Shown piece by piece: positions 2,593-43,575 of a DNA stretch of 59,321 bases. The first letter of the stretch is position 1. Each line of letters opens with the position of its first letter. The translations under genes were made by a program, and so were the position numbers. Origin of the DNA: a virus; the IMG/VR virus record IMGVR_UViG_3300022719_000028, positions 1 to 59,321 of that record. One strand, 5' to 3'. The notes below the pieces were generated by a model. The model searched no databases. It saw nothing but the letters and a program-made list of their open reading frames with translations, and was not told where the DNA came from.

Positions 2593-2680
2593 CGGGGCCG
2601 ATTATTGTGATATCATTTAAGCATGAACGGAAGGCAAGGCCGTTCGATATCACTTACTCAATTCTGAAAGGCACGGAACT
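2576..2680 (+). promoter_or_regulatory. early promoter/operator/leader cassette, copy 1
   Basis: Dyad TGAATTCA 2577-2584. -35 TTGACG 2589-2594, 16-nt spacer, TGA-TATCAT extended -10 2608-2616 (contains TGATATCA). Leader hairpin GAACGG/CCGTTC 2625-2645 with loop AAGGCAAGG. GAAAGGCACGGAAC before ATG 2681. Confidence 0.7.
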
Positions 2681-2878: not shown

Positions 2879-2884
2879 AACAAC

Positions 2885-2916
2885 GCGGGCCGTCAAACCG
2901 GCGGCCCGTTTTTTTC
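2885..2916 (+). terminator. intrinsic terminator
   Basis: GGGCCG 2887-2892 / CGGCCC 2902-2907, then T7 2909-2915. Part of a ~65-nt module repeated at 4532 and 26966. Confidence 0.75.
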
Positions 2917-2938
2917 TTCAACTGAAAGGCAAGGCAAG

Positions 2939-3955: not shown

Positions 3956-4200
3956 CGAGGCCACCGAAGAAACGATTGGCGGCGGAAAAACTTTTTGAAA
4001 CGTTGGCAACCGGGCCAATATCAATCGACGATATAACAAAAGGCCGTTCGCATTCCGAACCGGAACGGCTTCGCGAGAATTACGATCTTTGGTTTCGTTC
4101 TTGGGTACGCAATCAATTGATTGATTTGATTCCGCAACTATCGAAAGAAGCGGCGGAACGGATCGAAGAAAAACTTTCAGAAAAACAAAAAAAAGAGTGA
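3952..4200 (+). CDS. hypothetical protein (82 aa)
   Basis: ATGA start/stop overlap with the upstream gene. Its stop lies inside the cassette-2 dyad. Confidence 0.5.
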   Translation: MTRPPKKRLAAEKLFETLATGPISIDDITKGRSHSEPERLRENYDLWFRSWVRNQLIDLIPQLSKEAAERIEEKLSEKQKKE

Positions 4201-4298
4201 TATCAGAATTGACCGAACGCCGATAAGTGATATCATATAAACATCGACGGAAGGCAAGGCCGTCAAACATCACTCGAAACTTTGAAAGGCACGGAATT
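4197..4298 (+). promoter_or_regulatory. early promoter/operator/leader cassette, copy 2
   Basis: TGATATCA 4198-4205. -35 TTGACC 4209-4214. TATCAT 4231-4236 (TGATATCA 4228-4235). Hairpin GACGG/CCGTC 4246-4264 with loop AAGGCAAGG. GAAAGGCACGGAAT before ATG 4299. Confidence 0.7.
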
Positions 4299-4535
4299 AT
4301 GACAGTCACAAAAACAGTTGATATCAAAACCGATTTGATTGAAAGCTTGGTTGAGCTTCGCGAGAAGATGGAAGCCGGCAAAACAACGGATGCCGGATAC
4401 ATTCTTTCGGAAGTTCTCGATGCGGTTTCATCATCATCGGTTTCGGTTACTTGCGAACGGGTTGTTCGCGACGATAAGCAACCGGGCGCGTTGCCGGAAG
4501 GCGAAACCAACTACGCGGCATACAACATCGACTGA
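4299..4535 (+). CDS. hypothetical early protein (78 aa)
   Basis: An internal ATG of ORF 4227-4535 is chosen because the upstream part of that ORF is the promoter/leader. Canonical RBS spacing. Terminator follows. Confidence 0.6.
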   Translation: MTVTKTVDIKTDLIESLVELREKMEAGKTTDAGYILSEVLDAVSSSSVSVTCERVVRDDKQPGALPEGETNYAAYNID

Positions 4536-4540
4536 AACAA

Positions 4541-4570
4541 CGCGGGCCGTTTCGGCGGCCCGTTCTTTTC
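4541..4570 (+). terminator. intrinsic terminator
   Basis: GGGCCG 4544-4549 / CGGCCC 4556-4561 followed by a T-rich run. Confidence 0.7.
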
Positions 4571-4593
4571 TCTTATCACTGAAAGGCAAGGCA

Positions 4594-4920
4594 ATGAAGA
4601 ATCAAATCAAGGCATGCGGTTTGGAAGCAATCGAAATGATTTACGAAGGCGATACGGTTGCGGCGCATTCGATGGAATCGGAAAGCCGGGAATGCGAAGG
4701 CCCGCAAGCGAACTATGTTGTTGGGCAAGTTATGAAAACCGTTCAACCGGGCGAAGATCGCTTTTGCAAACATGCGGTTGAATGCTATCAAATCCGAATC
4801 ATGCTGGAAGTTAAAAAAGGCAAAACGAATTTTCGGCGTTCTGGTTTTCTTCATTATGTTCCGGTTAATGGAACAACCAACGTTTTCGGAAAGCCGAACA
4901 ACTTGGTTCATACGATCTGA
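4594..4920 (+). CDS. hypothetical early protein (108 aa)
   Basis: GAAAGGCAAGGCA-ATG RBS. The upstream part of ORF 4339-4920 overlaps the previous gene and a terminator. Confidence 0.6.
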   Translation: MKNQIKACGLEAIEMIYEGDTVAAHSMESESRECEGPQANYVVGQVMKTVQPGEDRFCKHAVECYQIRIMLEVKKGKTNFRRSGFLHYVPVNGTTNVFGKPNNLVHTI

Positions 4921-4927
4921 AACAACG

Positions 4928-4957
4928 CGGCCCGGAAACGGGCCGTTTCCTTTTTTT
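4928..4957 (+). terminator. intrinsic terminator
   Basis: CGGCCCG 4928-4934, GAAA loop, CGGGCCG 4939-4945, then TTTCCTTTTTTT. Confidence 0.75.
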
Positions 4958-4971
4958 GAAAGAACTATTCA

Positions 4972-5325
4972 ATGAATTACGATCCTGAAAAATTTGACTT
5001 TGGCGAACGCACGAATGAAGAAATTGCGGCGGCGGCTTTGGAAGTTGCCGAAGTGATGCGAAATCATTTCGGGCCGGATTGCAAGCCGGAACATATCGTT
5101 GGAATGTTGGCAATGATTGCGCTTCAATATCAAATGAATTGCGGAACGGGCGCGGATTCGCTTCATGCGATTATTCACAACGCCGGCGTTTGTTGGAACG
5201 CAATGTTGGAACATCAGGGTTTCATGGATCCGGACGAATCAACTCCGGGCTTCATGAATCCGGATGATGATGATGATGATGATGAACTTGGCGGCTTTGA
5301 TCGTCACGGATTTTCACAAAACTGA
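4972..5325 (+). CDS. hypothetical acidic protein (117 aa, C-terminal poly-Asp run)
   Basis: ORF with a GAAAGA RBS-like element. No family recognised. Confidence 0.55.
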   Translation: MNYDPEKFDFGERTNEEIAAAALEVAEVMRNHFGPDCKPEHIVGMLAMIALQYQMNCGTGADSLHAIIHNAGVCWNAMLEHQGFMDPDESTPGFMNPDDDDDDDELGGFDRHGFSQN

Positions 5326-5336
5326 AAGGCGGAAAA

Positions 5337-6005
5337 ATGGGAAGGCTAAAAAATGGCGCTTGCCGATGCGGGTTATCCTCAAAGATTCATTGCGTTGATT
5401 GCGGCAAGGGAAAGGCCGAAGCGAAAAAACTTTTCGTTCATCTTGGCGAATCCGGGCCGTTCGCTTCCGGGAAATTCATTGACGAACAAACGGAAGCAAT
5501 CGCGTTCAGCTATCCGAGAGGGCCGGCAACGGGCGCAATCTTTTCCGAATGCCGGAATCATCGGTTCGCGCTTTGGCGGATATGGGACAGACGAAAGCCG
5601 TTCGTTTGTTTCATCGGCTTGAATCCCTCGACGGCTGACGAAACCAAAAACGATAATACGGTTTCGCGTTGCGTTCGCTTCGCCGAAGATTTTGGCGGCG
5701 GCGGATTGGTTATGCTGAATGCGTTTTCATACCGGGCAACCGATCCGGAAGAAATGAAGCGGCAAGCCGTTCCGAATTTGATGGAAAATATCGATTGGAT
5801 TTCGGCGTTCGTTGGCTTGGCGGCGCTATCAGTTGCGGCTTGGGGAACGCATGGAACGTTCGCGAATCAAAGCGATTTCATTGCCTATCGAATGCGGAAG
5901 GATCTGCGAATGCTTCATTGTCTCGGAACGAACAAAGACGGAACGCCGAAACATCCGTTGTATTTGAAAGCCGATACGAAACCGGTTTTATGGTGCGAAC
6001 CGTAG
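5337..6005 (+). CDS. DUF1643-family protein with N-terminal Cys-rich extension
   Basis: NHRFALWRIWD..FVCFIGLNPSTADE..NDNTVSRCVRFA..GGLVMLNAFSYRATDP..WGTHG..LHCLGTNKDGTPKHPLYL matches the DUF1643 signature as I remember it. Confidence 0.7.
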   Translation: MGRLKNGACRCGLSSKIHCVDCGKGKAEAKKLFVHLGESGPFASGKFIDEQTEAIAFSYPRGPATGAIFSECRNHRFALWRIWDRRKPFVCFIGLNPSTADETKNDNTVSRCVRFAEDFGGGGLVMLNAFSYRATDPEEMKRQAVPNLMENIDWISAFVGLAALSVAAWGTHGTFANQSDFIAYRMRKDLRMLHCLGTNKDGTPKHPLYLKADTKPVLWCEP

Positions 6006-6087
6006 GAACGCGAAATTTCGATTCTGACGGCTTCGGGCGGTTCGGCGTAGGTTGAACCGTTTCGGGCCGTCAAAACGGCACGGCGCA

Positions 6088-6120
6088 ACGCTCCGGGATT
6101 TCTCCGGGGCGTTTTTCTTT
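6088..6120 (+). terminator. intrinsic terminator
   Basis: ACGCTCCGG 6088-6096 / CCGGGGCGT 6104-6112 (one G-U pair), then TTTTTCTTT. Confidence 0.65.
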
Positions 6121-6685
6121 GGGCGTTGCCTACAACCGGGCGGGCATCCGAAAAAGTTTATTTCAGTTTTTTATTTCGGCGGATCTATATTTTGTGGATG
6201 ACTCCCGCAAAAAACGGAAATGCACGGAAATTCCGGGAATTCAAACACAAGATATAGGGGTTGCCGGGCGGCCCGAATGGATCTGGTTGCGGTTTTGGGT
6301 ATTGAGGCCGGCGGAATGGATCCGATATCTTCGCAAACGCAACGAACGAAATTGAACCTTTCAGGCTTTCGCCGTATCCTGTTGATAACCGGCAAGCGCC
6401 GATTGGTTCACGTTCGTTGCAGTTCGTTGAATGGATACGCCGTTGCCGGTTTTTTCGTGCGCGGATATTCGTTGCAACGCGGCGTTGGGGCGAATGATTG
6501 CGAACGCCGTTACAAAGGAACCGCGCAATCAACGGCAATCGACCGAATGACGGGAACACGCAAGTTTTCGTTTTGGGGGGTAGGGGGGCTACGGCTTCTC
6601 TCCCTCATTCTGGGATCCGCAAGAGGGGTTTGATTCAAAGTTGAATGATTAAACTTGAAACTGAATTCACAAAAGGATCTAATCA
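6121..6685. other. 565-nt non-coding, highly structured region (candidate long leader/ncRNA or replication origin)
   Basis: Only Arg-rich, low-quality ORFs. Long hairpin 6339-6358/6405-6420. Hairpin 6480-6486/6503-6509. Five GATC sites. Shares 17-mer and 11-mer strings with the 13.5-kb non-coding segment. Confidence 0.55.
6571..6590 (+). promoter_or_regulatory. G-rich box TTTTGGGGGGTAGGGGGGCT upstream of the 6686 operon
   Basis: A near-copy CTTTGGGGGTATGGGGGCGGGTT lies at 32367-32389 upstream of the next long operon. Confidence 0.3.
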
Positions 6686-6892
6686 ATGAACCAACAAAGG
6701 CCGTTTTTGTATGGGAAAGTTAAGCGGGTTGATTGCTTTTGTGGAAAAACAACAATCCGGACAGTTAGAGGAAAAAGAGAAATAGAAATTTGCGACGGTT
6801 GCAAGCGCGACGTTCAACCGCATGAAATTTCGATTGACGATACCGGGCGAATGCTTCGGGAGTTGGACAAAAAAAACAAAGGCGCGGAATGA
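6686..6892 (+). CDS. small zinc-ribbon protein (68 aa)
   Basis: CFCG ... CDGC pairs. AAAGGA RBS. ATGA overlap with the next gene. Confidence 0.5.
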   Translation: MNQQRPFLYGKVKRVDCFCGKTTIRTVRGKREIEICDGCKRDVQPHEISIDDTGRMLRELDKKNKGAE

Positions 6893-7437
6893 ATCATCTG
6901 CCGGGATTGCGGAAAAAGTTCAAAACGATTTATGCGGATCCACCGTGGCAGTTCAACAACCGAACGGGCAAGGTAGCGCCGGAACATTCGCGGCTTCACC
7001 GTTATTCAACAATGACGTTCAACGAAATTTGCGAAATGCCGGTTGCGAATCATGCGGAAGAAAACGCGCATTTGTATCTTTGGATTCCGAACGCATTGTT
7101 GCCGGAAGGCTTGACCGTTCTTGACGAATGGGGATTTCGTTACGTTTCAAATCTTGTTTGGTTGAAGACTCGAAAAGACGGGCAACCGGACGGGCGCGGC
7201 GTTGGTTTTTACTTCCGGAATACAACCGAAATTTTATTGTTTGGAGTTCGCGGGAAATTGCGAACGCTTCAACCGGGGCGTTCTCAAGTCAACGCGATAA
7301 TGAAAGCGAAGCGGGAACATTCGCGCAAGCCGGATGAATTCTATGATTTGATTGAATCATGTTCGCCGGGGCCGTTTCTGGAATTGTTCGCGCGACACAA
7401 ACGGAAAGGCTGGCGGCAATGGGGCAACGAAATTTGA
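6889..7437 (+). CDS. MT-A70-family N6-adenine DNA methyltransferase
   Basis: IYADPPWQF (DPPW at 6937-6948), LYLW, EHSRKPDEFY. Confidence 0.85.
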   Translation: MNHLPGLRKKFKTIYADPPWQFNNRTGKVAPEHSRLHRYSTMTFNEICEMPVANHAEENAHLYLWIPNALLPEGLTVLDEWGFRYVSNLVWLKTRKDGQPDGRGVGFYFRNTTEILLFGVRGKLRTLQPGRSQVNAIMKAKREHSRKPDEFYDLIESCSPGPFLELFARHKRKGWRQWGNEI

Positions 7438-7976
7438 TCTTGCCGGAAGGGTTTGAATACACCGAAGCCGGGCATGTTGTAACGGAAATCGGTTTGCATA
7501 AACTTCAACTTGCGGCGAAAGCCGGCGTTGCAAGGCAAATCGAATCATATGCCAGAAAATCAAAACCGGCATACGGGGCCGATCATTCTTTGAATTGGCA
7601 AATCGCAATTGAAGGCGTTATTGGCGAATGGATTATTTCAAGAATGTTGGGCATCGAATGGCATGGCAAAGGCGTTCTTGGCGGCCCGGATGTTGGCGAA
7701 GATCTGGAAGTGAGAACATCAGCATACAACAACGGCCGTTTGATACTTCACCCGTTCGACGGGAAACGCGGCGATGATCCGAACCGAATCTTTTGGCTTG
7801 TTACAGGATCGCAACAAACATATTTTGTTCGGGGATGGATTCGGGCGGCTGACGGTCAACGTCAAGAATTCTGGACGAATCCAACGGGCAAAAAGGGGCG
7901 CGATGCGTTCTTTGTTCCGCAAAGCGAATTAAACTTGCCGGGAACTTTTGAGAGGGAAAAAGCAAATGCAATATGA
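7419..7976 (+). CDS. PD-(D/E)XK nuclease-like protein
   Basis: GGPDVGEDLEVRTS resembles the D...ExK/R core of restriction-fold/VRR-NUC nucleases. Overlaps the methyltransferase by 19 nt. Start is ambiguous (7359 or 7419). Confidence 0.4.
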   Translation: MGQRNLILPEGFEYTEAGHVVTEIGLHKLQLAAKAGVARQIESYARKSKPAYGADHSLNWQIAIEGVIGEWIISRMLGIEWHGKGVLGGPDVGEDLEVRTSAYNNGRLILHPFDGKRGDDPNRIFWLVTGSQQTYFVRGWIRAADGQRQEFWTNPTGKKGRDAFFVPQSELNLPGTFEREKANAI

Positions 7977-8148
7977 TCCGAATGAACCGTATCCGATGGA
8001 AGTGATTGATGCGGCCGTGAAACTTCGAAATGAAAAAGGTTGGGGCATGAAAAAGATTGCCCGCAAACTCAAAGTTGATGAAAGCAAATTGCGGCATGAT
8101 TATATGGAATTATTGATTCGCCAACGGGCGGCGGTTCAAGAAAAATGA
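7966..8148 (+). CDS. small helix-turn-helix protein
   Basis: GWGMKKIARKLKVDESKLRH resembles a resolvase/Hin-type HTH. Start 7948 or 7966. Confidence 0.45.
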   Translation: MQYDPNEPYPMEVIDAAVKLRNEKGWGMKKIARKLKVDESKLRHDYMELLIRQRAAVQEK

Positions 8149-8174
8149 TTTGAACTTTTTGAAAGGCTGACACA

Positions 8175-9023
8175 ATGGCAAATCCTCTAAAATGGCACGG
8201 CGGCAAAACGTATCTTGCCGGCGAAATCATCAAACGCTTTCCCGCGCATACGCGCTACGTTGAACCTTACTTCGGCGGCGGGGCCGTTCTCTTTGCAAAG
8301 CCGTTCGAAGGCGTTGCCGAGTATGCGAACGATCTGGATCTTGAGTTGATGAATTTTTGGCGCGTTCTGCAAAACGAATTTCTTGGGCCGTTGTTGATTC
8401 GGCGGTTGAACCTTGAACCGTTTTCAAAGCCGGGGTTCACGGTTGCAAATGCAAAATCGCAATATGCGGATCCGAATTCTTCGCCGGTTTTACGGGCGGC
8501 GAATTTCTTTGTTCGATACCGTCAAAGCCGGCAAGGCTTGGGGAAGGATTTCGCAACGCCAACATCGCGAACGCGGCGCGGAATGAACGAACAAGTTTCG
8601 GCATGGCTTTCGGCGGTTGATGGATTACCGGAAGCGGCGGAACGATTGCGACGGGTTGAAGTTCGCAACGAATCCGCGATTGATTGCATTACCGAACTCG
8701 ATTCGCCGGAAGCTTTGTTCTATCTGGATCCGCCATATCTTCCAGAAACTCGGAAAGCAAAAAAGACATACGGCGAATTTGAAGCAACGGTTGAACATCA
8801 TGAATTGCTTTTGAAAACGTTGGCGGGTATCAAAGGCAAATTCATTCTTTCCGGTTATCCTTCAACGATGTATCGAAAAGCGGCGAAGGCGAACAAATGG
8901 AAATGCGACAAAATAGAAATCGACAACAAAGCAAGTTCGGCGAAGAAAAAAGAAATCAAAACCGAATGCCTTTGGTTTAATTTCAGCCGGCGGGAATTCG
9001 GGAAGGGATTGAAAGCGGAATGA
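8175..9023 (+). CDS. Dam-type (D12 class) N6-adenine DNA methyltransferase
   Basis: KWHGGKTYLAGEI..YVEPYFGGGAVLF (SAM pocket) and FYLDPPY (DPPY at 8727-8738). RBS GAAAGGCTGACACA-ATG. Confidence 0.9.
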   Translation: MANPLKWHGGKTYLAGEIIKRFPAHTRYVEPYFGGGAVLFAKPFEGVAEYANDLDLELMNFWRVLQNEFLGPLLIRRLNLEPFSKPGFTVANAKSQYADPNSSPVLRAANFFVRYRQSRQGLGKDFATPTSRTRRGMNEQVSAWLSAVDGLPEAAERLRRVEVRNESAIDCITELDSPEALFYLDPPYLPETRKAKKTYGEFEATVEHHELLLKTLAGIKGKFILSGYPSTMYRKAAKANKWKCDKIEIDNKASSAKKKEIKTECLWFNFSRREFGKGLKAE

Positions 9024-9778
9024 GAATTTTGATAGTCGGCGCGCCGAAAACAGGAACAACGGCATTGATGGATTCAATCGCCGGAAGTTTAGGTTTCAAA
9101 TGGGAGTTCGAAAAAACCGATTGCGGTTCGGATAATCTTGTGAGAAAAATTCTATTTCATCAATTTGCGGATCGGATGATTGATGAATTTGATCGAATCA
9201 TTTTCACTTGCCGGGATCCTCGCGATAGGTTGATTTCGGCGTTTGTTTATTTCTTGGCGTTCGGGCCGGCAAACATGAAGGGGCCGTTCATCGCGCTTGA
9301 TCTTTTGCAGCGGAAAGAATTCGAACGCGAACTTCCGTTTCATATTTTGTTGCGGGAAGCTTCGCGGCATTGCTTTTTTCATTACTCGTTTTCTGAATTT
9401 GTTGATCGGGATTCGCTGGCGATGATTCGCCGGCATCGCGACAATCCGAAAGTTTGCGTTTTTCATTATCACGATTTAATCAAAACAAACTTTGAAACCG
9501 TTTCGGAGTTGATCGGAAAAAAGATCAAACCGTTTTCCGGGCATTGGTCGCCTATTGCATACCGGGCCGGCGGTTGTGAGTATTGGCGGCGATGGTTCAC
9601 GGAATCGGATCTTGATTATTTTACCGATATCGCGAACGATTGGGCGCGAACTTTTGGATTCGGTTTGGATTGGCGGCTTTCGGATGAAGGCGCGAACGCG
9701 GCGGAAGGATCTGAATGGTTCAAGATCGGCGCGAACAAATGGCGAAAGATAAACGGCGTTCCCGAACTGGAATTTTGA
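9020..9778 (+). CDS. sulfotransferase-family protein
   Basis: GAPKTGTTAL (5'-PSB loop, PKxGTT) and FTCRDPRDRLISAF (3'-PB, RDPxDRxxS). Confidence 0.7.
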   Translation: MRILIVGAPKTGTTALMDSIAGSLGFKWEFEKTDCGSDNLVRKILFHQFADRMIDEFDRIIFTCRDPRDRLISAFVYFLAFGPANMKGPFIALDLLQRKEFERELPFHILLREASRHCFFHYSFSEFVDRDSLAMIRRHRDNPKVCVFHYHDLIKTNFETVSELIGKKIKPFSGHWSPIAYRAGGCEYWRRWFTESDLDYFTDIANDWARTFGFGLDWRLSDEGANAAEGSEWFKIGANKWRKINGVPELEF

Positions 9779-9779
9779 A

Positions 9780-10568
9780 ATGAAAAAAGCGGCTTGCGTT
9801 TTCACGATTGTTCAAGATGAAAGTTTTTTCTTGCGGCTTTGGTTTGAACATTATCTTCAACATTTCGACGCAACCGATCTTTTTGTTATCGATCATAATT
9901 CCATCGAACCGGTTCAAGTTCCGGAAGGCGTGAACGTTATTCGGCTGGAATATGAAACATCGTGGGCGCATGATTGGCTTTGCGAGACGGTTGAAAACTT
10001 CAATCGTTTTTTGCTTGGAACTTATGAAACCGTTTTGTTCGCGGAAGCCGATGAATACTATATCGCGAATCCTCTTTTGACTTCGGCCGCAAAGCTTCCG
10101 GAAGTATTGAACGCGGAACATATCGCAAAGAAACCGGTTTTGCGTTCTCAGGGATTTGATATCGTTCAGATGGTCAACGAAGATCCGCCGGTCGATCCTT
10201 CAAAGCCGATGTTGGGGCAACGTCAATTGATGTTCGCTTCCGATGCCTATTGTAAGCCGTGCGCGGTTCGCGTTCCCGTTCGATGGAATTACGGCTTTCA
10301 TACTTTGAGATCTCGCGATATGGTTACGTTCGTTCCCGAATTGGTTCTTTGTCATTTTCATTACTTTGATGAAGACATTTTGAACGAACGGAACGCATTG
10401 CGGCTTGAACGCAAATGGTGCGAAAAAGCTTTATACGATAACCTCGGAAAACAAAACCGAAACAGTTGCACGGAAGTTCGGAAGGAATTTTTGGAATGGA
10501 AAAAAAAGCGAACAATCATGCGGCCGATTCCGGACGAATGGAAATCGTTGATTCCCGCGTTGCGATAG
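9780..10568 (+). CDS. GT-A glycosyltransferase (Glyco_tranf_2_4 / GT92-like)
   Basis: ACVFTIVQDESFFLRLWFEHYLQHFDATDLFVIDHNS and EADEYY motifs. Confidence 0.5.
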   Translation: MKKAACVFTIVQDESFFLRLWFEHYLQHFDATDLFVIDHNSIEPVQVPEGVNVIRLEYETSWAHDWLCETVENFNRFLLGTYETVLFAEADEYYIANPLLTSAAKLPEVLNAEHIAKKPVLRSQGFDIVQMVNEDPPVDPSKPMLGQRQLMFASDAYCKPCAVRVPVRWNYGFHTLRSRDMVTFVPELVLCHFHYFDEDILNERNALRLERKWCEKALYDNLGKQNRNSCTEVRKEFLEWKKKRTIMRPIPDEWKSLIPALR

Positions 10569-11566
10569 TTGTTCCGTCGAATCGCGTTGATGAAATGTGG
10601 AAGTTCAAAAGCGAATGGGAAAGCGAACACGCAACAATCTTTTGCGTTTGGGATAAGGAAACCAAGCCGGGCCGGTTTACAGATTCGAAAACATTCCGTT
10701 CAATTTCGCATCGCGAAATCAAAGAACAATACGGCGAAGTTTCAAAAATCTTTTCAACCAATGACGGCGGGATCCGCATCGCTGGATTCTTGGAAGCGGC
10801 GCGGGCCGGGGCCGAAGTGATTATTGTTTTAGATGATGATACGCGGCCGCATGGTAGCGTTGCCGATTTCATTGAAGGGCATTGCCAAAACTTACGCGGC
10901 GGATTCCCGCGTTGGATTTCGAGCGCTCCGGGAATTCATCAACGCGGCTTGCCGTATCTTCCGGATATAAAAATTCAAAGGCCCGTTCTTTTGTCCGTTG
11001 GATTATGGCAAGGCGTTCCGGATGTTGACACAATCGAAACGTTCGCGGCATTGCGCCGGAAAATATCGCTTCATTACATACCACCAAAGGGAACGCGCAT
11101 CGTTCCGGCCGGGCAACTGGTAACGCTTTCGGGCATGAACTTCGCTTTCCCTGTTGAGTTTCTACCGGCCGCGTTTTGGCCGAAGCAATCGTTGGAAACG
11201 TTTCAAAGATTTGACGACATTTGGGGCGGCTTCTCAATGCAACTAATCATTGAACAGTTCGGCGGAATTGTGACAACGGGCGAACCGTTCGTTTTGCACG
11301 AACGAAGATCCAGCGCATACGCGAACTTGAAAAAAGAAACGCGCGGCATCATTGCGCATGATGAAGTTTCGCAATTGATCGACGGTTTCGAGAGTCAAGA
11401 AACATCGATTGCAAGAACGGCGTTCGCGTTCGTTGAACATCTGAGAAGAAAAGCCGGAATGATGGATTCGGATGTTGCCGAATACGTCAAGCAATGGGCA
11501 ACGGACTTTGAAGCATGGCTTGAACTATGCAAAAAACTTTTCCAAAAACTTTCCAAAAAAGAATGA
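10538..11566 (+). CDS. GT75 / reversibly-glycosylated-polypeptide (RGP)-like protein
   Basis: VAIVVPSNRVDEMWKFKSEWESEH..IFCVWD and IIVLDDDTRP resemble the RGP/UDP-arabinopyranose-mutase family N-terminus and DDD motif. Start 10496 or 10538. Confidence 0.5.
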   Translation: MEIVDSRVAIVVPSNRVDEMWKFKSEWESEHATIFCVWDKETKPGRFTDSKTFRSISHREIKEQYGEVSKIFSTNDGGIRIAGFLEAARAGAEVIIVLDDDTRPHGSVADFIEGHCQNLRGGFPRWISSAPGIHQRGLPYLPDIKIQRPVLLSVGLWQGVPDVDTIETFAALRRKISLHYIPPKGTRIVPAGQLVTLSGMNFAFPVEFLPAAFWPKQSLETFQRFDDIWGGFSMQLIIEQFGGIVTTGEPFVLHERRSSAYANLKKETRGIIAHDEVSQLIDGFESQETSIARTAFAFVEHLRRKAGMMDSDVAEYVKQWATDFEAWLELCKKLFQKLSKKE

Positions 11567-11649
11567 TATCACATTGACGGGCGGCCGATAAGTGATATCA
11601 TACAGTTGTTGAAGGCAAGGCAACAAAACAAAACGAAAGGCACGGAATT
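11563..11649 (+). promoter_or_regulatory. early promoter/operator/leader cassette, copy 3
   Basis: TGATATCA 11564-11571. TTGACG 11574-11579. TATCAT 11596-11601. Hairpin TTGTTG/CAACAA 11606-11626 with the same AAGGCAAGG loop. GAAAGGCACGGAAT before ATG 11650. Confidence 0.7.
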
Positions 11650-11883: not shown

Positions 11884-11971
11884 GTGATATCAGGATTGAC
11901 GGCGGGCCGATAAGTGATATCATATAAACATCTGGCAAACGGCAAGGCAAACAAACGAAAGGCACGGAAAG
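11884..11971 (+). promoter_or_regulatory. early promoter/operator/leader cassette, copy 4
   Basis: TGATATCA 11885-11892. TTGACG 11896-11901. TATCAT 11918-11923. The leader contains GGCAAGGCAA 11941-11950 but has no clean hairpin. Confidence 0.65.
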
Positions 11972-12291: not shown

Positions 12292-12585
12292 ATGACGGTT
12301 GAACTCAACAATCTTTTTGAATTTGAACTTCCGGAATCAATCACAATCAAAACAGGCAAGGCAATGAAACTTTCAAAAGAACAATACAAAGAAACGCTTT
12401 CGGGTTTGGGCGATGCGTTGAACTCTTTTCGTTCGGCGCGTGAACATGAACGCGAAGCGGAAGCGAAGCGGGTTCAATTCTGGATTGATGAATTGGAACC
12501 GGCGGAAATGAAACGCAAAGATCAACGTTTGATCGAAGCGGCAACTCGGAAAATCCGGGAAGCGCGAAAAGCAATTTCAAACTGA
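12292..12585 (+). CDS. hypothetical protein (97 aa, charged/helical)
   Basis: GAAAGGCGCGGCA-ATG places the start at 12292 rather than 12277. Confidence 0.55.
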   Translation: MTVELNNLFEFELPESITIKTGKAMKLSKEQYKETLSGLGDALNSFRSAREHEREAEAKRVQFWIDELEPAEMKRKDQRLIEAATRKIREARKAISN

Positions 12586-12598
12586 AAGGCACGGAAAG

Positions 12599-13006: not shown

Positions 13007-13447
13007 ATGGACGGGCAAAACGGAACGCGAAAAACGCCGAACGTTATGACACAAGAAAACGCGATTGCAATGGCGGCGGCGGCGCTGGCGAATCAATCCG
13101 AAATCCGAAATCGCGCTTGGTTGAACGCGGCGGAAATCGGAAACTTCATTGCCGGTAAAGCGGGGATTGAACCGGATGATTTCAGACCGGCGGCGCATCA
13201 TGTTCACAAAATCTTGAAAGGCGTGAACATCGAATTCACGGCGTTAAACGTCAAGCAAACGGGCGGCGTTGAAACTCGCAAGCGAAACGCGGTTGCATCG
13301 GAACATCTGGATCTTCTCGCGGGGATGTTCAAGGCGTTGCCGAAGCAACAAAAAGAACAGGCCGATTTGTATTTTCGCGAACGCAACGGCGGGAAAGGCG
13401 TTGCCGAATTTCTCGGCATTTCTCAAGATACGCTTTTTCCGAATTGA
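13007..13447 (+). CDS. hypothetical protein (146 aa), possible C-terminal HTH
   Basis: GAAAGGCTGGCAAAG-ATG RBS. GKGVAEFLGISQDTLF looks HTH-like. Confidence 0.55.
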   Translation: MDGQNGTRKTPNVMTQENAIAMAAAALANQSEIRNRAWLNAAEIGNFIAGKAGIEPDDFRPAAHHVHKILKGVNIEFTALNVKQTGGVETRKRNAVASEHLDLLAGMFKALPKQQKEQADLYFRERNGGKGVAEFLGISQDTLFPN

Positions 13448-13459
13448 CAAACGGCAAGT

Positions 13460-13593
13460 TGACGGGAAGAATTGAAACCGTCAGCCGGCGGCGCTTGCCT
13501 TGCCAGAATAGCGCCGTTGCCGTTGCCGGAAGGGGGATTGCTTTGGGGATTCTATTTCCTCAACATTCCGTGCCTACCCTTCCGGCTTTTTTT
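13460..13593 (+). ncRNA. candidate anti-leader small RNA
   Basis: Three hairpins, the last a 10-bp stem 13525-13534/13577-13586 plus T7. Loops carry CTTGCCTTGCC (13494-13504) and CATTCCGTGCCT (13564-13575), exact reverse complements of the two conserved RBS leaders. No credible ORF. Confidence 0.45.
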
Positions 13594-13638
13594 CTGCGCT
13601 GGCGAAAAAGTTTATTTCAAAATCTTTTTGGTTTTTAT

Positions 13639-13746
13639 GTGAATTCACATTGACGGGCGGCCGATAAGTGATATCATTGGCGGCGTTGACAACAGGCGCG
13701 GAAGCCGAATTTCTTTATATGAATCTTTTACGAAAGGCGCGATGCA
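13639..13746 (+). promoter_or_regulatory. early promoter/operator cassette, copy 5 (drives the RHH-csrA-recombination operon)
   Basis: TGAATTCA 13640-13647. TTGACG 13650-13655. TATCAT 13672-13677 (TGATATCA 13669-13676). The leader differs from the other copies (GGCGCGGAAGCC). Confidence 0.65.
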
Positions 13747-14001
13747 ATGGCGAAAGGCCGGGACACAACAACGCTTCACACTCCGGAAGGCTATCTTTCG
13801 GCGGTTGATGAAAATCTTTTGATTGAAGGCGAAAGCCGGGGCGCATTCATCCAACGAATCCTTTGGTTGTTACTGACGGAACGGCTGGAAGTTATTCGCG
13901 ACGATGAAGGCGAAATCATCGACATACAAAAAACGGATCGGAAGCGTTTCAAAAATTATCCGGAACCATTAGTTCGGGGCCGGGCGAAAAAAACGAAGTG
14001 A
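13747..14001 (+). CDS. ribbon-helix-helix (CopG/Arc/MetJ-like) DNA-binding protein candidate
   Basis: TTTLHTPEGYLSAVDENLLIEGESRGAFIQRILWLLL fits a strand-helix-helix pattern. First gene behind promoter 5. Confidence 0.45.
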   Translation: MAKGRDTTTLHTPEGYLSAVDENLLIEGESRGAFIQRILWLLLTERLEVIRDDEGEIIDIQKTDRKRFKNYPEPLVRGRAKKTK

Positions 14002-14048
14002 GCGTTTCACTTTGAATTGATGGATTAGTTTTTTTGAAAGGGAATTCA

Positions 14049-14330
14049 ATGTTAGTTTTATCTCGAAAAGCGAATGAACGAATTTTGATCGGCGATGATG
14101 TTGAAATTGTTGTTGTTGAAGTTCGCGGCAAGCGGGTTCGGCTTGGCATCAAAGCGCCGGGCGAAACTCGGATCATTCGCGCAGAATTAAAGGCGGCTGA
14201 CAATGATGGAAACAATGACGAACTCGGAATTCAACCATTTGAAAAAGACGTTGAAGAAAACCGACAACGCGACAAAAACGATCTTCAACATGCGGAAGAT
14301 GATCGAACAGGCGTTGCCGGAAGATCTTGA
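14049..14330 (+). CDS. csrA: CsrA/RsmA-family RNA-binding translational regulator with acidic C-terminal extension
   Basis: MLVLSRKANERILIGDDVEIVVVEVRGKRVRLGIKAPGETRIIRAEL aligns residue by residue with canonical CsrA (E. coli MLILTRRVGETLMIGDEV..VRIGVNAPKEV.VHREEI). Confidence 0.85.
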   Translation: MLVLSRKANERILIGDDVEIVVVEVRGKRVRLGIKAPGETRIIRAELKAADNDGNNDELGIQPFEKDVEENRQRDKNDLQHAEDDRTGVAGRS

Positions 14331-14535
14331 CGAACTACGCGAAGCGGTCAAACATCATCGGATCCCGGTTGAAATCAAAACGGTTTCGCCGGGGCCGTTG
14401 AATCTTCCGTTCTATTACGAAGATCCGGTTTCGCGGGAATGCTTTCGCTTCCGGACGATCAAAGCGGCGGCGATTCATTGCAATCGTTTTTATGATGCCG
14501 TTAATCCGGAAGGGCAAAAGATAGTTGAAATCTGA
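14203..14535 (+). CDS. hypothetical protein (110 aa)
   Basis: AAAGGCGGCTGACA-ATG RBS of the common family. Overlaps the csrA tail by 128 nt in another frame. Confidence 0.5.
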   Translation: MMETMTNSEFNHLKKTLKKTDNATKTIFNMRKMIEQALPEDLDELREAVKHHRIPVEIKTVSPGPLNLPFYYEDPVSRECFRFRTIKAAAIHCNRFYDAVNPEGQKIVEI

Positions 14536-14578: not shown

Positions 14579-16114
14579 ATGGCGAAGAAAAAGACGGCGC
14601 GGGCAAAAAACAAAAAGCCGGCTGACGGAATCGATGTAGAATCAATCGGCCCGGTTGATCAAATTCATATTCCTATTCCGGAAGGCGGCGGCGTTGTCGC
14701 ATTGAAGGGGCCGAACGGGGCCGGGAAAACGAAAACGCTGGAAGCGGCGGAAGCTTTGGTTTCTGGCAACGCTCGCATTCTCTCGGCTTCTGACGGGGCC
14801 GATGCGGGGCTTGTGGATGGATTCGGCGCTTTGATCCGGGTTGGACGAACAAGCCGGAAGGCGGGCGAACTGGAAGCCGTATCGATCATCGGGAAGTTCT
14901 CAGTTGCCGATTTAGTGGATCCGGGCTTCAAAGATGAAAACGCATGCGATGCGGCGCGGGTGAAAGCATTGATTCAACTTGCCGGGAAAACGGCGGAAGA
15001 ATCCGATTTCAAAGGTTTGTTCAATTCCGATGAACAGTTCAAAGAAATCGTTGGCGATGAACTCAAAGATCTTTCGTCGATGGTCGATATGGCCGGCAAA
15101 GTCAAACGGCAATGCGAAAGCGCGGCCCGGAAGCTTGAAAGCCAAGCCGACAAAAAAGAAACGGAAGGGCAAGGCATCATTGACGCGGCCGAACCGGAAC
15201 TTGAAAACTTGCCGGAAGGATCGCTTGAAGATTCGCAAGCCGAGTTGAACCGGGCGATTCGCGAACAATCGCGGCTTGAAGGCGTTCTTGAATCGCTGGA
15301 ATCCGGAAGGCAACAACGCGAAAGCGCGGCAAAGCAAATTGAAGAATTGCGAAAGAATGCCGGCGATGTTGAAAAGCTTGAAACGCTGGCAGACGCGAAA
15401 GCCGATATCGTTGCCGAAGCGAACGATAAAGTTGAACGGTTGAAAAAAGAGTTGGCCGAAGCCGAAACCGAAGCGAAAGATGCACAACGCGATTATCGGC
15501 AAGCTTGCGAAGCGAAAGATAACGCGATTTCGGCGAATGAAGAAATCGAAAAGCTTGAAAAGATTCTTTCAACTCAAAGAGAGGGTTCGGAAGATGATGT
15601 TCGCGAACAACTGGAAACCGCGAAACAAACGGCCGATGAATTGACCGATAAGGTTTCATCACTCAAAGGCGCGGAACGCATTCGCGAACGTTACGAAAAA
15701 GGGAAGGCGTTGAAAATCGAAGCCGACGATTTGAACGCCGAAGCGGAAGCGCTTCGCGATATCGGGTATTCAACCGATGATGTTCTTTCGGAAGCCGTAA
15801 GCGGCATCACAACGGCCGATCTGAAAATTGAAGGCGGCCGGCTGGTAACGGAAACGAAACGCGGAACAACGCTATTTCATGAACTCTCGCACGGCGAACG
15901 CTGGAAGATCGCGATTCAAGTTGCAATCGATATCGTCAAACAGGCGGCCGAAGAATCCGGAAAACCACCGTTGTTGATTTGCCCGCAAGAGGCATGGGAA
16001 GCTTTGGATCCGATCAACCGGGGCGAAGTCAACGAAGCTTTGAAGGGAACCGGAATCGTTATGCTGACGGCGCTTGCCGATGTTGGCGAACTCCGGGCGG
16101 AAAGCTTAGAATAA
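14579..16114 (+). CDS. SMC/RecN/Rad50-like ABC ATPase with central coiled coil
   Basis: Walker A GPNGAGKT. Long E/K/A-rich coiled coil. LSHGERWK signature-like motif. LLICPQEAWEALD Walker B-like. Confidence 0.7.
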   Translation: MAKKKTARAKNKKPADGIDVESIGPVDQIHIPIPEGGGVVALKGPNGAGKTKTLEAAEALVSGNARILSASDGADAGLVDGFGALIRVGRTSRKAGELEAVSIIGKFSVADLVDPGFKDENACDAARVKALIQLAGKTAEESDFKGLFNSDEQFKEIVGDELKDLSSMVDMAGKVKRQCESAARKLESQADKKETEGQGIIDAAEPELENLPEGSLEDSQAELNRAIREQSRLEGVLESLESGRQQRESAAKQIEELRKNAGDVEKLETLADAKADIVAEANDKVERLKKELAEAETEAKDAQRDYRQACEAKDNAISANEEIEKLEKILSTQREGSEDDVREQLETAKQTADELTDKVSSLKGAERIRERYEKGKALKIEADDLNAEAEALRDIGYSTDDVLSEAVSGITTADLKIEGGRLVTETKRGTTLFHELSHGERWKIAIQVAIDIVKQAAEESGKPPLLICPQEAWEALDPINRGEVNEALKGTGIVMLTALADVGELRAESLE

Positions 16115-16203: not shown

Positions 16204-17211
16204 ATGATTGATTCAAAGATTGCAGTTGAAGGGCCGAAGGCGCATTCTCCCGAATGGTACGATATCCGGTTTTTCGATCCGGATCGGGAAAGGCCGGTTG
16301 TGATAACGGCAAGCGAATCGGCGGCGGCTTGCGGCGCTTCGCCGTATCAAACCGCGCTTGAACTCTACATGACGAAGCGGCGCGAAATGGAAGCTTGGGA
16401 ACCGGACGACGAACAAAAAGAGCGCATGCGATTCGGTCAACGGATGGAATCGGTTGTTATCGACGAATACAAAAATCAAAACGATTGCGAAGTTGAAACC
16501 GATTTGCCGTTGTATCTTTCAAATCGATTTGAATTCTTGGGCGCAACTCCGGATGCGTTCGCGCGGAAAGATGAAGACGTTTGGGAACTGGAAGCCAAAA
16601 ACTCGAATTGGCGAATGTTCGATCAAAGCGGCGAAGATGAAAACAAATACGGCGAAGCCGGAACGGATCAAGTTCCCGCGTATATGATGTTTCAAGCGCA
16701 ACAACAAATGATCGTTCTTGGTTTGAACCGGGTTGATTTTCCCGTTCTGCAAAACGGGAATCGAATGTTGATTTACCGGGTTGAAGCTTATGAAGCTTTG
16801 CAAAATAAAATCATTGAATGCGGGAAAGAACTTGCCGAACGCATCATCAACGGCGAACCGCCGGATCCGGATTACACGCATGACGGAACCGCGAAATTGC
16901 TTCAAGAAATGTACGGCGTTTCGGTCGGAACCGTTATTGAACTCGATGTTGATGCCGAAGAACTTTGGTTTCGTCAAATTGAGATTGCCGAGAAGATCAA
17001 AGAACTTGAAGCGGAAAAAAAGGCAATCAAAAACAAGATGTTGGATATGATGGGCGATGCTGAGATTGCCCGTTTTCCGGGGCGAAATTTCAAATTGAAG
17101 CGAACCGCTATTGATGATTCGTATTGGACGGAACAAGATGTTCAAAAGATTGTGATCGGAGATATAAAGCGGCGCGGACATATCCGCATCACAAAATCAA
17201 AAGACAAATAA
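16204..17211 (+). CDS. YqaJ / lambda-Exo-type recombination exonuclease
   Basis: ITASESAAACGASPYQTALELYMTKR (YqaJ N-terminal signature). GATPDAF ... WELEAKNS (PD-ExK). Confidence 0.8.
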   Translation: MIDSKIAVEGPKAHSPEWYDIRFFDPDRERPVVITASESAAACGASPYQTALELYMTKRREMEAWEPDDEQKERMRFGQRMESVVIDEYKNQNDCEVETDLPLYLSNRFEFLGATPDAFARKDEDVWELEAKNSNWRMFDQSGEDENKYGEAGTDQVPAYMMFQAQQQMIVLGLNRVDFPVLQNGNRMLIYRVEAYEALQNKIIECGKELAERIINGEPPDPDYTHDGTAKLLQEMYGVSVGTVIELDVDAEELWFRQIEIAEKIKELEAEKKAIKNKMLDMMGDAEIARFPGRNFKLKRTAIDDSYWTEQDVQKIVIGDIKRRGHIRITKSKDK

Positions 17212-17302: not shown

Positions 17303-18454
17303 ATGGCAAGCGGAAATCAAATGCTGACACAAGATCAAATCGACGCGCAACGCGGAATGAGTTTGCGCAAATGGTTGAACAAGCCGGAAGTTCTTGAAGA
17401 TCTCGAATCTTCATTGACGGGTTGGATTTCAGCCGAACAATTCAAATCGCAAATTTTAGTTGATATCAATTCGGAAACTCTCGCGCGTTGTTCTCCCGAA
17501 TCAAAGTTTGCGGCGGTTCTCAAATGCGCAACGCTTCAACTGTTACCGTCATTGAATCACGTTGCGTTGATTCCTTCCAAAGTTCGCGAAGACGGCGTTG
17601 TTGTCAAAACCGAAGTTCGCGTTACGGTTCAATGGCAAGGCTATCAAGCTTTGATGCTTCGGCATCCGGACGTTAAAGATGTGAACGCTTACTTGGTTCA
17701 CGAATCGGATTCGTACAAATACGATCAATTAAATAAACGAATCGTTGAACATTCTTTTGATCCGTTGGATCCGCAACGAACTTTCAACAACTTCAATGAC
17801 GTTCGCGGCGGGTATGTAGTTGTTGAGTACAAAGATCCGAACCGGGCTGATAAACATCATTTCGTTACATGCGAAACAATCCGCAAGGCGCGGGGATGCG
17901 CAGAAACCGGCACGATTTGGGAAGCATGGTTTTTCGAAATGTGTATGAAAACTCTCTATCGCAACGCATACGCGCGGCGGGTTGTTCCGATGGATCCAAT
18001 GCTTGCGCGACGAATGGAAGAATTGAACCGGCATGAAGACGAACAACTCGGCAACGATCCGAAGCGAATCATTGATTCAACCGCAACCGCGATTGATCGA
18101 AAGCCGGAAAAACAGAAACCGCAAAGCCGGGCCGCGCAATTGGCTTCGGACGATTCGCCGGAATCTTCGCCGGTGGAACCGGAACCGAAAGCAACGGAAC
18201 CGGAACCGATGAACGAACCGGAACCGGAACCGGAACTTCCAGAAACGCCAACGGATGAACCAAGGCGCGAAACATCGGACGAACGCGGGCATTTCCAACG
18301 GCTGAAAGAAAAGGCCGAATGCGCAACAACCGTGAAAGAAATCGATTCGCTGAATGATGAAGCCGGCGAATTGGTTTCAAGCGGGGAACTGACGAACGGC
18401 GAATTCGGAATTCTGGTACAGTTGTTTTCGGAACTTGCAATGAAACTCGATTGA
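17303..18454 (+). CDS. recT: RecT-family single-strand annealing protein with Pro/Glu-rich C-terminal region
   Basis: SPESKFAAVLKCATLQLLPSLNHVALIP ... VQWQGYQALMLRH ... TLYRNAYARR. Adjacent to the YqaJ exonuclease. Confidence 0.8.
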   Translation: MASGNQMLTQDQIDAQRGMSLRKWLNKPEVLEDLESSLTGWISAEQFKSQILVDINSETLARCSPESKFAAVLKCATLQLLPSLNHVALIPSKVREDGVVVKTEVRVTVQWQGYQALMLRHPDVKDVNAYLVHESDSYKYDQLNKRIVEHSFDPLDPQRTFNNFNDVRGGYVVVEYKDPNRADKHHFVTCETIRKARGCAETGTIWEAWFFEMCMKTLYRNAYARRVVPMDPMLARRMEELNRHEDEQLGNDPKRIIDSTATAIDRKPEKQKPQSRAAQLASDDSPESSPVEPEPKATEPEPMNEPEPEPELPETPTDEPRRETSDERGHFQRLKEKAECATTVKEIDSLNDEAGELVSSGELTNGEFGILVQLFSELAMKLD

Positions 18455-20173: not shown

Positions 20174-20269
20174 GATTTCGCACGGAAGCGAATTAGGTTG
20201 TTTGCGATAGGCAACCGGGCCGACATGATGCCGGCTTTTTATTTTAGGCTGACAACGAAAGGCGCGGAA

Positions 20270-26684: not shown

Positions 26685-26768
26685 CGGACGGCCGATAAGT
26701 GATATCATATAAACATCGACGGAAGGCAAGGCCGTCAAGAACGAAACTCAAAACAAAGGCACGGAATC
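26681..26768 (+). promoter_or_regulatory. early promoter/leader cassette, copy 6
   Basis: TTGACG 26681-26686. TATCAT 26703-26708 (TGATATCA 26700-26707). Hairpin GACGG/CCGTC 26718-26736 with loop AAGGCAAGG. The distal dyad is absent. Confidence 0.65.
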
Positions 26769-27272: not shown

Positions 27273-27378
27273 GTGAATTCACATTGACGGCGGGCCGATA
27301 AGTGATATCATTAAAAATGTAAGGCGAACGGCAAGGCGATTCGCCAACAATCAAAACTTTTTTGAAAGGCACGGAACT
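27273..27378 (+). promoter_or_regulatory. early promoter/operator/leader cassette, copy 7
   Basis: TGAATTCA 27274-27281. TTGACG 27284-27289. TATCAT 27306-27311. Hairpin GGCGAA/TTCGCC 27323-27345 with loop CGGCAAGGCGA. Confidence 0.7.
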
Positions 27379-32389: not shown

Positions 32390-32551
32390 ATGTTTTTACG
32401 GCGATATTTGATTGAAACGGCTGACGGCAAACAAAGCGAAATCGTTGCGCGGGATTGGATCGAAGCGGAATTGATAATTGAAATCCGCAACCGGGGCGAA
32501 CGAATCGTTCGGCTTGTCTATCGGCCGGAAGAAATGAAAGGCGCGGAATGA
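32390..32551 (+). CDS. hypothetical protein (53 aa)
   Basis: ATG 32390 within ORF 32369-32551. Confidence 0.4.
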   Translation: MFLRRYLIETADGKQSEIVARDWIEAELIIEIRNRGERIVRLVYRPEEMKGAE

Positions 32552-37873: not shown

Positions 37874-37896
37874 CTTCAACAAACGAAAGGCACGGA

Positions 37897-38238
37897 ATGA
37901 AAACCATTATCACGCATCCGAACAACGTTAAGTTTTTGAGGGAACAACTTGAAGGCGGTTCGCTATTTGAAGGGCAACCGTTGTTCGGGATCCCGATTCA
38001 AACAAATCCGTTCATCAAAGAAACTCGTTTGACTGGCAATTACATTTTGCCGAACGGCGATGTTGTTGAACCTTTCAGCGAATGGAAGATTGAAACGCGG
38101 TTCATTGATTACGGGCCGGAAGATCTCGATTATCTTCTGAAAGCTGGTATTGTGAAGCCGGAACGGGTTCGCGAATACTACGTTGCCGATACGAACGGAT
38201 TCGATTTGATCCGTTCGCCATTTATGCAATTGACTTGA
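37897..38238 (+). CDS. hypothetical protein (113 aa)
   Basis: Early-type RBS GAAAGGCACGGA-ATG. Confidence 0.55.
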   Translation: MKTIITHPNNVKFLREQLEGGSLFEGQPLFGIPIQTNPFIKETRLTGNYILPNGDVVEPFSEWKIETRFIDYGPEDLDYLLKAGIVKPERVREYYVADTNGFDLIRSPFMQLT

Positions 38239-43472: not shown

Positions 43473-43575
43473 GTGATATCAACTATTTACTTCGCCGATA
43501 AAAGTGATATCATTAAAACATCGACGGAAGGCAAGGCCGTCACAAACAAAACAACATTCTGAAAGGCACGGAATT
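43473..43575 (+). promoter_or_regulatory. early-type promoter/operator/leader cassette, copy 8 (inside the head module)
   Basis: TGATATCA 43474-43481. -35 TTTACT 43486-43491. TATCAT 43508-43513. Hairpin GACGG/CCGTC 43523-43541 with loop AAGGCAAGG. Confidence 0.65.

Follow-up and report, generated by a model that had tools for sequence, protein, structure and literature searches.

The stretch of DNA analyzed here (IMG/VR virus record IMGVR_UViG_3300022719_000028, positions 1 to 59,321; hereafter the window, meaning all 59,321 bases) contains a gene for a protein of the CsrA family, csrA, within a predicted early operon. The window comprises the entire genome of a tailed phage, assembled in circular form (bases 12–137 = 59196–59321), with nearly all genes on the plus strand. 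Its products include large terminase, portal, major head, tape measure and RecT proteins (PHROG) and a YqaJ exonuclease (Pfam), and several DNA methyltransferases and glycosyl/sulfotransferases were found among its genes. The portal protein showed 21–29% identity to that of any isolated phage, and the phage and its host are thus regarded as uncultured. No tRNAs were found in the window, and no Rfam family was matched at the gathering score. Relatives were located by alignment-based and DNA-pattern scans of IMG/VR.

The csrA gene and its operon

The csrA product consists of a core (residues 1–50; 14049–14198) and a tail (residues 51–93) predicted to be disordered. Residues 1–49 aligned with positions 1–49 of the 53 positions of the Pfam profile PF02599 (CsrA) at 75.3 bits (E 3.7e-21), compared to a curated cut-off of 27 bits, and the product matched PHROG 9500 'CsrA-like regulator' (E 1.8e-15). 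A phmmer search of the PDB gave CsrA, RsmA and RsmE chains only, aligned without gaps, the best being Geobacillus CsrA from a FliW complex (5DMB_D) followed by B. subtilis CsrA (1T3O). In the AlphaFold2 (AF2) model from 30 homologues, the predicted local distance difference test score (pLDDT) was 86–93 for the core (residues 1–40) and below 55 from residue 50 onward, and the top 15 Foldseek matches in the PDB were all CsrA, RsmE or RsmA (template modelling score on the target ~0.7, root-mean-square deviation ~2 Å over 52 residues). The prediction was made for a single chain, and strands 1 and 5 are therefore absent from this monomeric model. The C-terminal helix is predicted to be short (residues 45–48 only). 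An earlier interpretation of the window made without database searches (the sequence-only reading) had called the product a CsrA homologue, and all these comparisons agree with it. The translation was as quoted there, and of the checks proposed there the family-profile search was significant and the structure prediction, as a single chain, gave the CsrA-family fold.

L2, L4, S5, R6, R44 and E46 were invariant across the alignment of 30 homologues, phage copy included. According to the summary of an E. coli alanine scan given in PMC3534301, the RNA-binding regions of CsrA are residues 2–7 and 40–47, with L2, L4, R6 and R44. The canonical VHRE motif is IIRA in the phage protein; V42I and I47L are conservative changes and H43 is replaced by Ile. 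The functional CsrA of Campylobacter jejuni carries V42I, H43L and I47L (PMC3534301). The core was shown to be under purifying selection (dN/dS 0.22–0.52). The open reading frame (ORF) is thus confirmed as a genuine CsrA-family gene, functional-looking as judged from its sequence and with the predicted RNA-binding residues intact.

As stated in the sequence-only reading, csrA is the second gene of the operon behind the fifth of eight near-identical cassette promoters (Table 1), and its transcription from this predicted early sigma-70-type promoter is supported. The first gene, p84, showed 79–86% identity in three relatives and dN/dS of 0.10–0.22, its homologues being four only. It had been described as a ribbon-helix-helix (RHH) protein; the beta-alpha-alpha sequence pattern fits, but no Pfam, PHROG or PDB match was found and the AF2 model (pLDDT 60) lacked the N-terminal strand. 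The csrA start codon lies 7 nt after the Shine-Dalgarno (SD) sequence GAAAGG, and GAAAGGGA(A/T)TT at this ribosome-binding site (RBS) is kept in the relatives L002 and L027. The closest CsrA homologues are 67–82 amino acids (aa) long. DNA alignment showed the stop of a 70-aa version (GTGA) to be CCGA in the window, and this loss added 23 residues to csrA by read-through across orf110. The latter had no family match and is missing from the L027-type phage. Homologues of the downstream SbcC-like ATPase, p511, carry PF13476, and one source labels its homologue as SbcCD ATPase subunit.

Table 1. Positions in the window of csrA, its operon and the candidate cis sites.
Feature	Position	Strand	Evidence or remark
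csrA coding sequence (93 aa; ATG 14049, TGA 14328–14330)	14049..14330	+	Pfam, PHROG, PDB, AF2, Foldseek
csrA SD GAAAGG with overlapping GGA (14041–14043)	14036..14043	+	read from sequence
Cassette promoter 5 (TTGACG, 16 nt, TG-n-TATCAT), upstream of p84-csrA operon	13650..13677	+	promoter scan 10/12 with TG extension; one of eight near-identical cassettes
p84 (84 aa), in every case the gene immediately before csrA; RHH-like from its sequence pattern only	13747..14001	+	sequence conservation
orf110, overlaps csrA tail by 128 nt in another frame	14203..14535	+	73% identical orthologue overlapping csrA in L001–L005
SbcC-like P-loop ATPase (p511), operon gene	14579..16114	+	weak AAA_29 and ABC_tran matches
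YqaJ-type exonuclease	16204..17211	+	PF09588, 81.6 bits
RecT-like annealing protein	17303..18454	+	PHROG 148, E 1.2e-31
Two strong hairpins and U-run: upstream-operon terminator or small RNA	13486..13593	+	minimum free energy −48.6 kcal/mol, z −2.68
Candidate cis block AAAGGCACGGAA before ATG 2681, first gene of cassette 1	2667..2678	+	sequence; putative CsrA site
Block AAAGGCACGGAA before ATG 4299 (cassette 2)	4285..4296	+	
Block AAAGGCACGGAA before ATG 11650 (cassette 3)	11636..11647	+	
Block AAAGGCACGGAA before ATG 11972 (cassette 4)	11958..11969	+	
Block AAAGGCACGGAA before ATG 12599 (internal gene, no promoter)	12585..12596	+	
Block AAAGGCACGGAA before ATG 26769 (cassette 6)	26755..26766	+	
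Block AAAGGCACGGAA before ATG 27379 (cassette 7)	27365..27376	+	
Block AAAGGCACGGAA overlapping ATG 37897 (internal gene)	37886..37897	+	
Block AAAGGCACGGAA before ATG 43576 (cassette 8)	43562..43573	+	
Variant block AAAGGCGCGGA abutting ATG 6889 (MT-A70 methyltransferase)	6878..6888	+	
Variant block AAAGGCGCGGAA abutting ATG 20270	20258..20269	+	orthologous site kept in relatives
Variant block AAAGGCGCGGA abutting ATG 32548	32537..32547	+	relative has GGCGCGGACAATG

Occurrence of csrA in phages and other mobile elements

The order p84, csrA, (orf110), SbcC-like ATPase, YqaJ, RecT was found repeated in two related lineages (L001-type and L027-type). In addition, csrA directly precedes genes for an SbcC-like ATPase and YqaJ in L087 and L088, and it precedes such an ATPase gene in L090 and L098 too, these being phages of 59–66% GC whose ATPase is only 30–35% identical to that of the window. 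In L034 it lies between an HTH_3 gene and YqaJ, with an SbcC-like ATPase nearby. The position of csrA beside recombination genes in such deeply diverged phages indicates that it is recurrent there and not a recent acquisition. Judged from gene order, csrA is a long-standing component of the early operon of this phage family (p84, csrA, orf110 in some, ATPase, YqaJ, RecT). In Vibrio phage VvAW1 (L130, 3403–4776), the annotated gene for a CsrA-like regulator overlaps both its neighbours, a DEDD exonuclease gene on the upstream side and an HNH endonuclease gene on the downstream side, which recalls the adjacency of csrA and nuclease genes in the window. The csrA start codon of the GC-rich phage L087 (9985–10005) lies within GCAAGGAUG, which nearly matches the SELEX core of CsrA (CARGGAUG), and the csrA leader of L034 (330–380) contains three GGA motifs (ACGGGAAAGGGCGGAUAACGGAUUCG). 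These two leaders give a hint that phage csrA genes may be autoregulated.

The sequence-only reading had pointed to a virus with its own global translational repressor, which is already documented (PMC7366521, PMC8450108, PMC11879866). Phage-borne csrA as such is not new: besides PHROG 9500, an E. coli CsrA query matched 88 GenBank phage records, more than 411 CsrA-like stretches were found in the alignment-based IMG/VR scan, and the phage csrA surveys of 2020 and 2021 (PMC7366521, PMC8450108) catalogue such genes without going further. A tblastn search of GenBank phages with the window CsrA gave no match, which is attributed to divergence or filtering and not to absence of csrA from phages, given the 88 records above. 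In the single functional test (2025), knock-down of a phage csrA resulted in smaller plaques, the targets not being identified (PMC11879866). For phage and plasmid homologues of CsrA, manipulation of host regulons has been proposed or demonstrated (PMC8450108, PMC9928087).

Compared to the phage CsrA/RsmA homologues RsmM (Pseudomonas, F116-like), gp26 of Vibrio phage VvAW1 and gp28 of E. coli phage PTXU04, the window protein is likewise a small CsrA-fold protein encoded in the early/DNA-metabolism region of a tailed phage, but it belongs to a Planctomycetota-like FliW-type clade with Ile43, has a 43-residue disordered tail encoded over the next gene, and is found in a genome with highly modular RBSs. 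RsmQ of plasmid pQBR103 (PMC9928087) and CsrT of Legionella integrative and conjugative elements (ICEs), the latter as cited in PMC7366521, are likewise CsrA paralogues of mobile elements and can take over translational control of the host. RsmQ and CsrT act from resident elements of Gammaproteobacteria with sRNA sponges, whereas csrA of the window belongs to the early genes of a phage, and the search for a sponge-like RNA was negative.

Promoter cassettes and the GGA block at start sites

The window contains eight near-identical sigma-70-type promoters (−35 at 2589, 4209, 11574, 11896, 13650, 26681, 27284 and 43486) with an extended −10 (TGATATCAT, containing the palindrome TGATATCA). A second palindrome (GTGATATCA or GTGAATTCAC) abuts the −35 in seven of the eight cassettes, and the paired palindromes look like operators for a dimeric DNA-binding protein. 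The same cassette promoter was detected in metagenome contigs showing no protein similarity to the window phage (L118, L120, L124, L127–L129).

The phage's own leaders had been proposed in the sequence-only reading as targets of the phage CsrA, with CACGGAA directly before nine start codons as one of the arguments. CACGGAA was found in 21 copies in the window (14.1 expected). NNATG follows eight of the 17 plus-strand copies, at the genes named there (binomial p 8e-11), and the ninth, at 37897, overlaps the ATG, so that the count of nine stands. The motif was shown to be part of a longer block GAAAGGCACGGAA(NN)ATG, the real unit being GAAAGGCACGGAANNATG, and forms the tail of the 12-nt block AAAGGCACGGAA. 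GAAAGG is complementary to the usual anti-SD tail CCUUUC, and the block therefore represents an SD plus its spacer. With the variant AAAGGCGCGGA(A) at three more start sites (6889, 20270 and 32548), there are 12 sites in all with GGA 3–7 nt before the AUG, the position in which a CsrA would block the ribosome. Of the eight cassette promoters seven are followed by the block, as opposed to two of the 53 other start sites (Fisher p 6e-7). Its 12 nt do not vary, in contrast to the leader and the two nucleotides that follow the block. This position and invariance favour some sequence-specific constraint. The spacers of p84, orf110, the ATPase, YqaJ and RecT in the window contain no GGA.

Comparison with other phages and other start sites was less in agreement with CsrA binding. 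All copies of the block in related phages were CGCGGAA, the conserved part being CGGAA only, which shows that the A(N)GGA context is not conserved. Two copies of the block lie inside coding sequence. Sibling start sites have GAAAGGCGC in common and continue with GGCA, GATT or AA; GGA is thus not the sole selected continuation. The csrA gene of the L027-type phage lacks its own promoter and is transcribed within a cassette that opens with a block-bearing gene; an exemption of the csrA operon from the block is therefore not general. The IMG/VR scan for the pattern GAAAGGCACGGAANNATG gave single, unrelated matches only, and no recurrent GGA block was found in other csrA-bearing phages, in which the conserved role of csrA would thus be independent of it.

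Other spacers recur as well in the window: CTGACA(C)A follows GAAAGG at 8175, 14579, 16204, 17303 and 44073, where it is used by recombination genes among others, start site 14579 belonging to the CTGACACA class, and CAAGGCAA follows GAAAGG at 2939, 4594 and 27030. A C directly after AAGG was found at 40 of 60 SD-supported sites. Avoidance of GGA in the SDs of the phage was considered and rejected, since GGA occurs in 34 of 61 start regions (43 in total, 26.6 expected).

The 5′ leaders contain a hairpin (e.g., 4245–4263, 11606–11624 and 27323–27345) whose conserved loop, AAGGCAAGG, has no GGA. The stems differ (GACGG/CCGTC, TTGTTG/CAACAA or GGCGAA/TTCGCC, some changes being compensatory) or are missing, and for this reason ACGGAAGG, which had been placed at the stem/loop junction of the conserved hairpin, is present in only four of the eight leaders and not in the conserved loop. 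A second GGA was likewise found in four of the eight leaders, the other half having one only. The leaders fold no better than shuffled sequences (z ~0), and the GGA of the block lies in unstructured RNA outside any loop; together with GCGGAA in the relatives, this does not support the earlier view of these sites as matching the A(N)GGA context and the hairpin-loop preference of CsrA proteins. The loop AAGGCAAGG resembles two tandem SD cores and also serves as SD of genes 2939, 4594 and 27030.

A sponge RNA of the CsrB type was rejected, as no Rfam family was matched and neither of two non-coding regions was enriched in GGA (14 compared to 12.3 expected in 6121–6685, and 5 compared to 6.5 in 13448–13746). 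The tandem ACGGAAA motifs reported at 6214–6230 are present, but the region 6121–6685 around them is not GGA-enriched. The hairpins at 13486–13593, preceded by a promoter-like site at 13444–13472 (TTGACA, 17 nt, AAGAAT), have a bulge that carries TTCCGTGCCT, antisense to AGGCACGGAA, and exposes GUGCCUA, within UUCCGUGCCU, antisense to the RBS block. For the 'anti-leader' TTCCGTGCCT, a co-varying TTCCGCGCC was sought on the sense strand of the parts of relatives that were fetched, and none was found; nor is the antisense motif conserved in these parts. The element may represent a small RNA, or simply terminate the operon that precedes it.

Outside these elements, 6006–6685 comprises ~680 nt without an SD-supported ORF, with a terminator-like hairpin at its start and a 137-aa ORF without RBS (6220–6633). 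An origin, an attachment site or a region of non-coding RNA are possible identities of this stretch. The early region 1810–11566 is rich in genes for modification enzymes, namely a GT2 glycosyltransferase (1810), DUF1643 (5337), an MT-A70 methyltransferase (6889), a Dam-type methyltransferase (8175), a sulfotransferase (9020) and an RGP-like glycosyltransferase (10496), which may form a DNA or surface modification module. Across the assembly junction (1–320 and 58900–59321), long imperfect AAC/GAC/CAC-rich repeats were found in an ORF beginning at 56781 and still open at the last base; they encode a low-complexity Asn/Asp/His-rich part of a large, probably tail-associated protein.

Possible roles of the phage CsrA

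The nearest cellular homologues of the phage CsrA were Planctomycetota-type CsrAs, some encoded directly after fliW and others being orphan paralogues in cellular contigs. With FliW-partnered CsrAs (1T3O, 5DMB; Campylobacter) the window protein shares the MLVLSRK N-terminus, T5S and R7K. Unlike these, it is encoded by a phage without fliW (no FliW-like sequence was found in the window, and the neighbours of csrA are p84 and orf110), D41 is replaced, N55 is variable among phage copies and the C-terminal helix is short. Antagonism by FliW requires N55 and D41 of CsrA in B. subtilis (bioRxiv 10.1101/2020.07.02.184341); among the phage copies, R, K or P is found at position 41 and N, D or Q at position 55, the window copy having R41 and N55. 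By analogy with established CsrA proteins, the product would act as a dimer binding single-stranded GGA at or beside RBSs, thereby blocking translation initiation. As a trans-acting mimic of host CsrA it could reprogram host mRNAs, which in FliW-type hosts would be those of flagellin and the Csr regulon, and it may escape control by host FliW, since the determinants of FliW antagonism (position 41, N55, the helix) do not appear to be kept and the phage lacks fliW. Autorepression through the conserved GAAAGGGA site and repression of the CGGAA-class start sites of the phage might be additional effects, neither being required by the evidence. Such trans-acting mimicry of host CsrA, directed at host mRNAs and possibly combined with FliW escape and autoregulation, is considered the most likely role (probability about 0.5). 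Several observations weigh against it. H43, which contributes to RNA binding in RsmQ, where H43A weakens it (PMC9928087), is Ile in the phage protein. The FliW-contact residues known from B. subtilis and Geobacillus are not strictly kept in the nearest cellular homologues either (S41). The fliW-csrA contigs (L006 and L035) were rejected as host of the phage because of their GC content (~62%) and weak SDs. Besides, a purely host-directed role leaves the position-specific GGA block at 12 phage start sites unexplained.

This block is what the model of the sequence-only reading accounts for: CsrA would bind the GGA of GAAAGGC(A/G)CGGAA and, where it is present, ACGGAAGG of the 5′ hairpin, and would repress translation of the first genes of the cassettes as an early-to-middle switch. 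The distance of GGA from the AUG, the association with cassette promoters, the invariance of the 12 nt amid varying surroundings and the GGA-free spacers of the csrA operon in the window are consistent with this, as are the presence of csrA in both phage lineages that have the block and the occurrence in four leaders of two ACGGA motifs ~40 nt apart; a CsrA dimer can bridge two sites. The placement of the block thus agrees with a cis regulon, whereas its A(N)GGA context, the unstructured leaders, the single GGA in half of them, the alternative GATT and AA continuations of GAAAGGCGC, the two copies within coding sequence, the L027-type csrA transcript beginning with a block-bearing gene, the missing sponge RNA and the other csrA-bearing phages do not, and the model is considered rather unlikely. 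Alternatively, the block may be unrelated to CsrA and represent the 3′ end of a mobile, homogenised promoter-leader-RBS cassette, serving as a recombination joint for swaps of small cargo genes and yielding a strong RBS as by-product, for which the chances are judged about even. When the window was compared with the L027-type phage, identical leader-block units were found to precede different genes and orthologous genes to lie behind different leaders, and the cassettes of either genome all have one and the same A/G variant of the block, as in concerted evolution; swapped cargo and a fixed difference are the signature of a mobile, homogenised regulatory cassette. Five cassettes are self-contained, with promoter, one gene and terminator (families D4, D6 and D9), and the phage has its own RecT/YqaJ recombination system. 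A precedent is found in the PeSL cassettes of T4-type phages, in which a repeated early promoter and stem-loop flank small ORFs of unknown function and shuffle genes, in line with the eight cassettes and swapped cargo seen here (PMC2839356, PMC4122927), although the unit in the window continues through a leader element (AAGGCAAGG) and the 12-nt RBS block, and the genome is siphovirus-like with 59 kb and not that of a T4-type myovirus. Cassette mobility explains neither the sharp boundary of the block nor its presence at internal genes without promoter (12599, 37897, 6889, 20270 and 32548), and it is compatible with CsrA binding. The block is thus explained at least as well by cassette biology as by binding of the phage CsrA, the two not being mutually exclusive. 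A combined, two-level shut-off of the cassettes, with CsrA acting on GGC(A/G)CGGAA and p84 on GTGATATCA/GTGAATTCAC as a virus-owned regulon in which the block co-evolves with CsrA (CAC here, CGC in the L027-type phage), appears unlikely; the L027-type CsrA was found to differ from that of the window in RNA-binding region 2.

Two further explanations concern the protein itself. The phage CsrA might be a decoy that alters host CsrA activity indirectly, by sequestering FliW or by pairing with host CsrA in inactive heterodimers. In agreement with this, fliW-linked CsrAs are among its closest cellular homologues, N55 is present in the window copy, and the identity to host-type CsrAs (59% overall, 72–75% over the aligned core) could allow mixed dimers. 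However, the sister phage copies do not all keep N55, position 41 is basic, and a pure decoy would not need the invariant RNA-binding residues, which makes this quite improbable. Resemblance of the core to cellular proteins would also fit a recently captured host gene without a role in the phage cycle, but csrA keeps its position in three lineages and has related neighbours in deeply diverged phages, its dN/dS is below 1 and it has a phage-type RBS of its own; recent capture is thus disfavoured as highly improbable.

The phage family described here adds a clade that is apparently derived from FliW-type CsrAs but appears to lack the residues for FliW control, and it shows that csrA neighbours genes for an SbcC-like ATPase or YqaJ in phages that are deeply diverged. 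With the candidate cis sites of the window, few in number and well defined, a set is available that can be tested in vitro despite the uncultured state of both phage and host. Binding of the phage's own leaders by this CsrA, if real, would make these sites the first CsrA regulon of a virus; otherwise the protein would be one more host-mimicking regulator.

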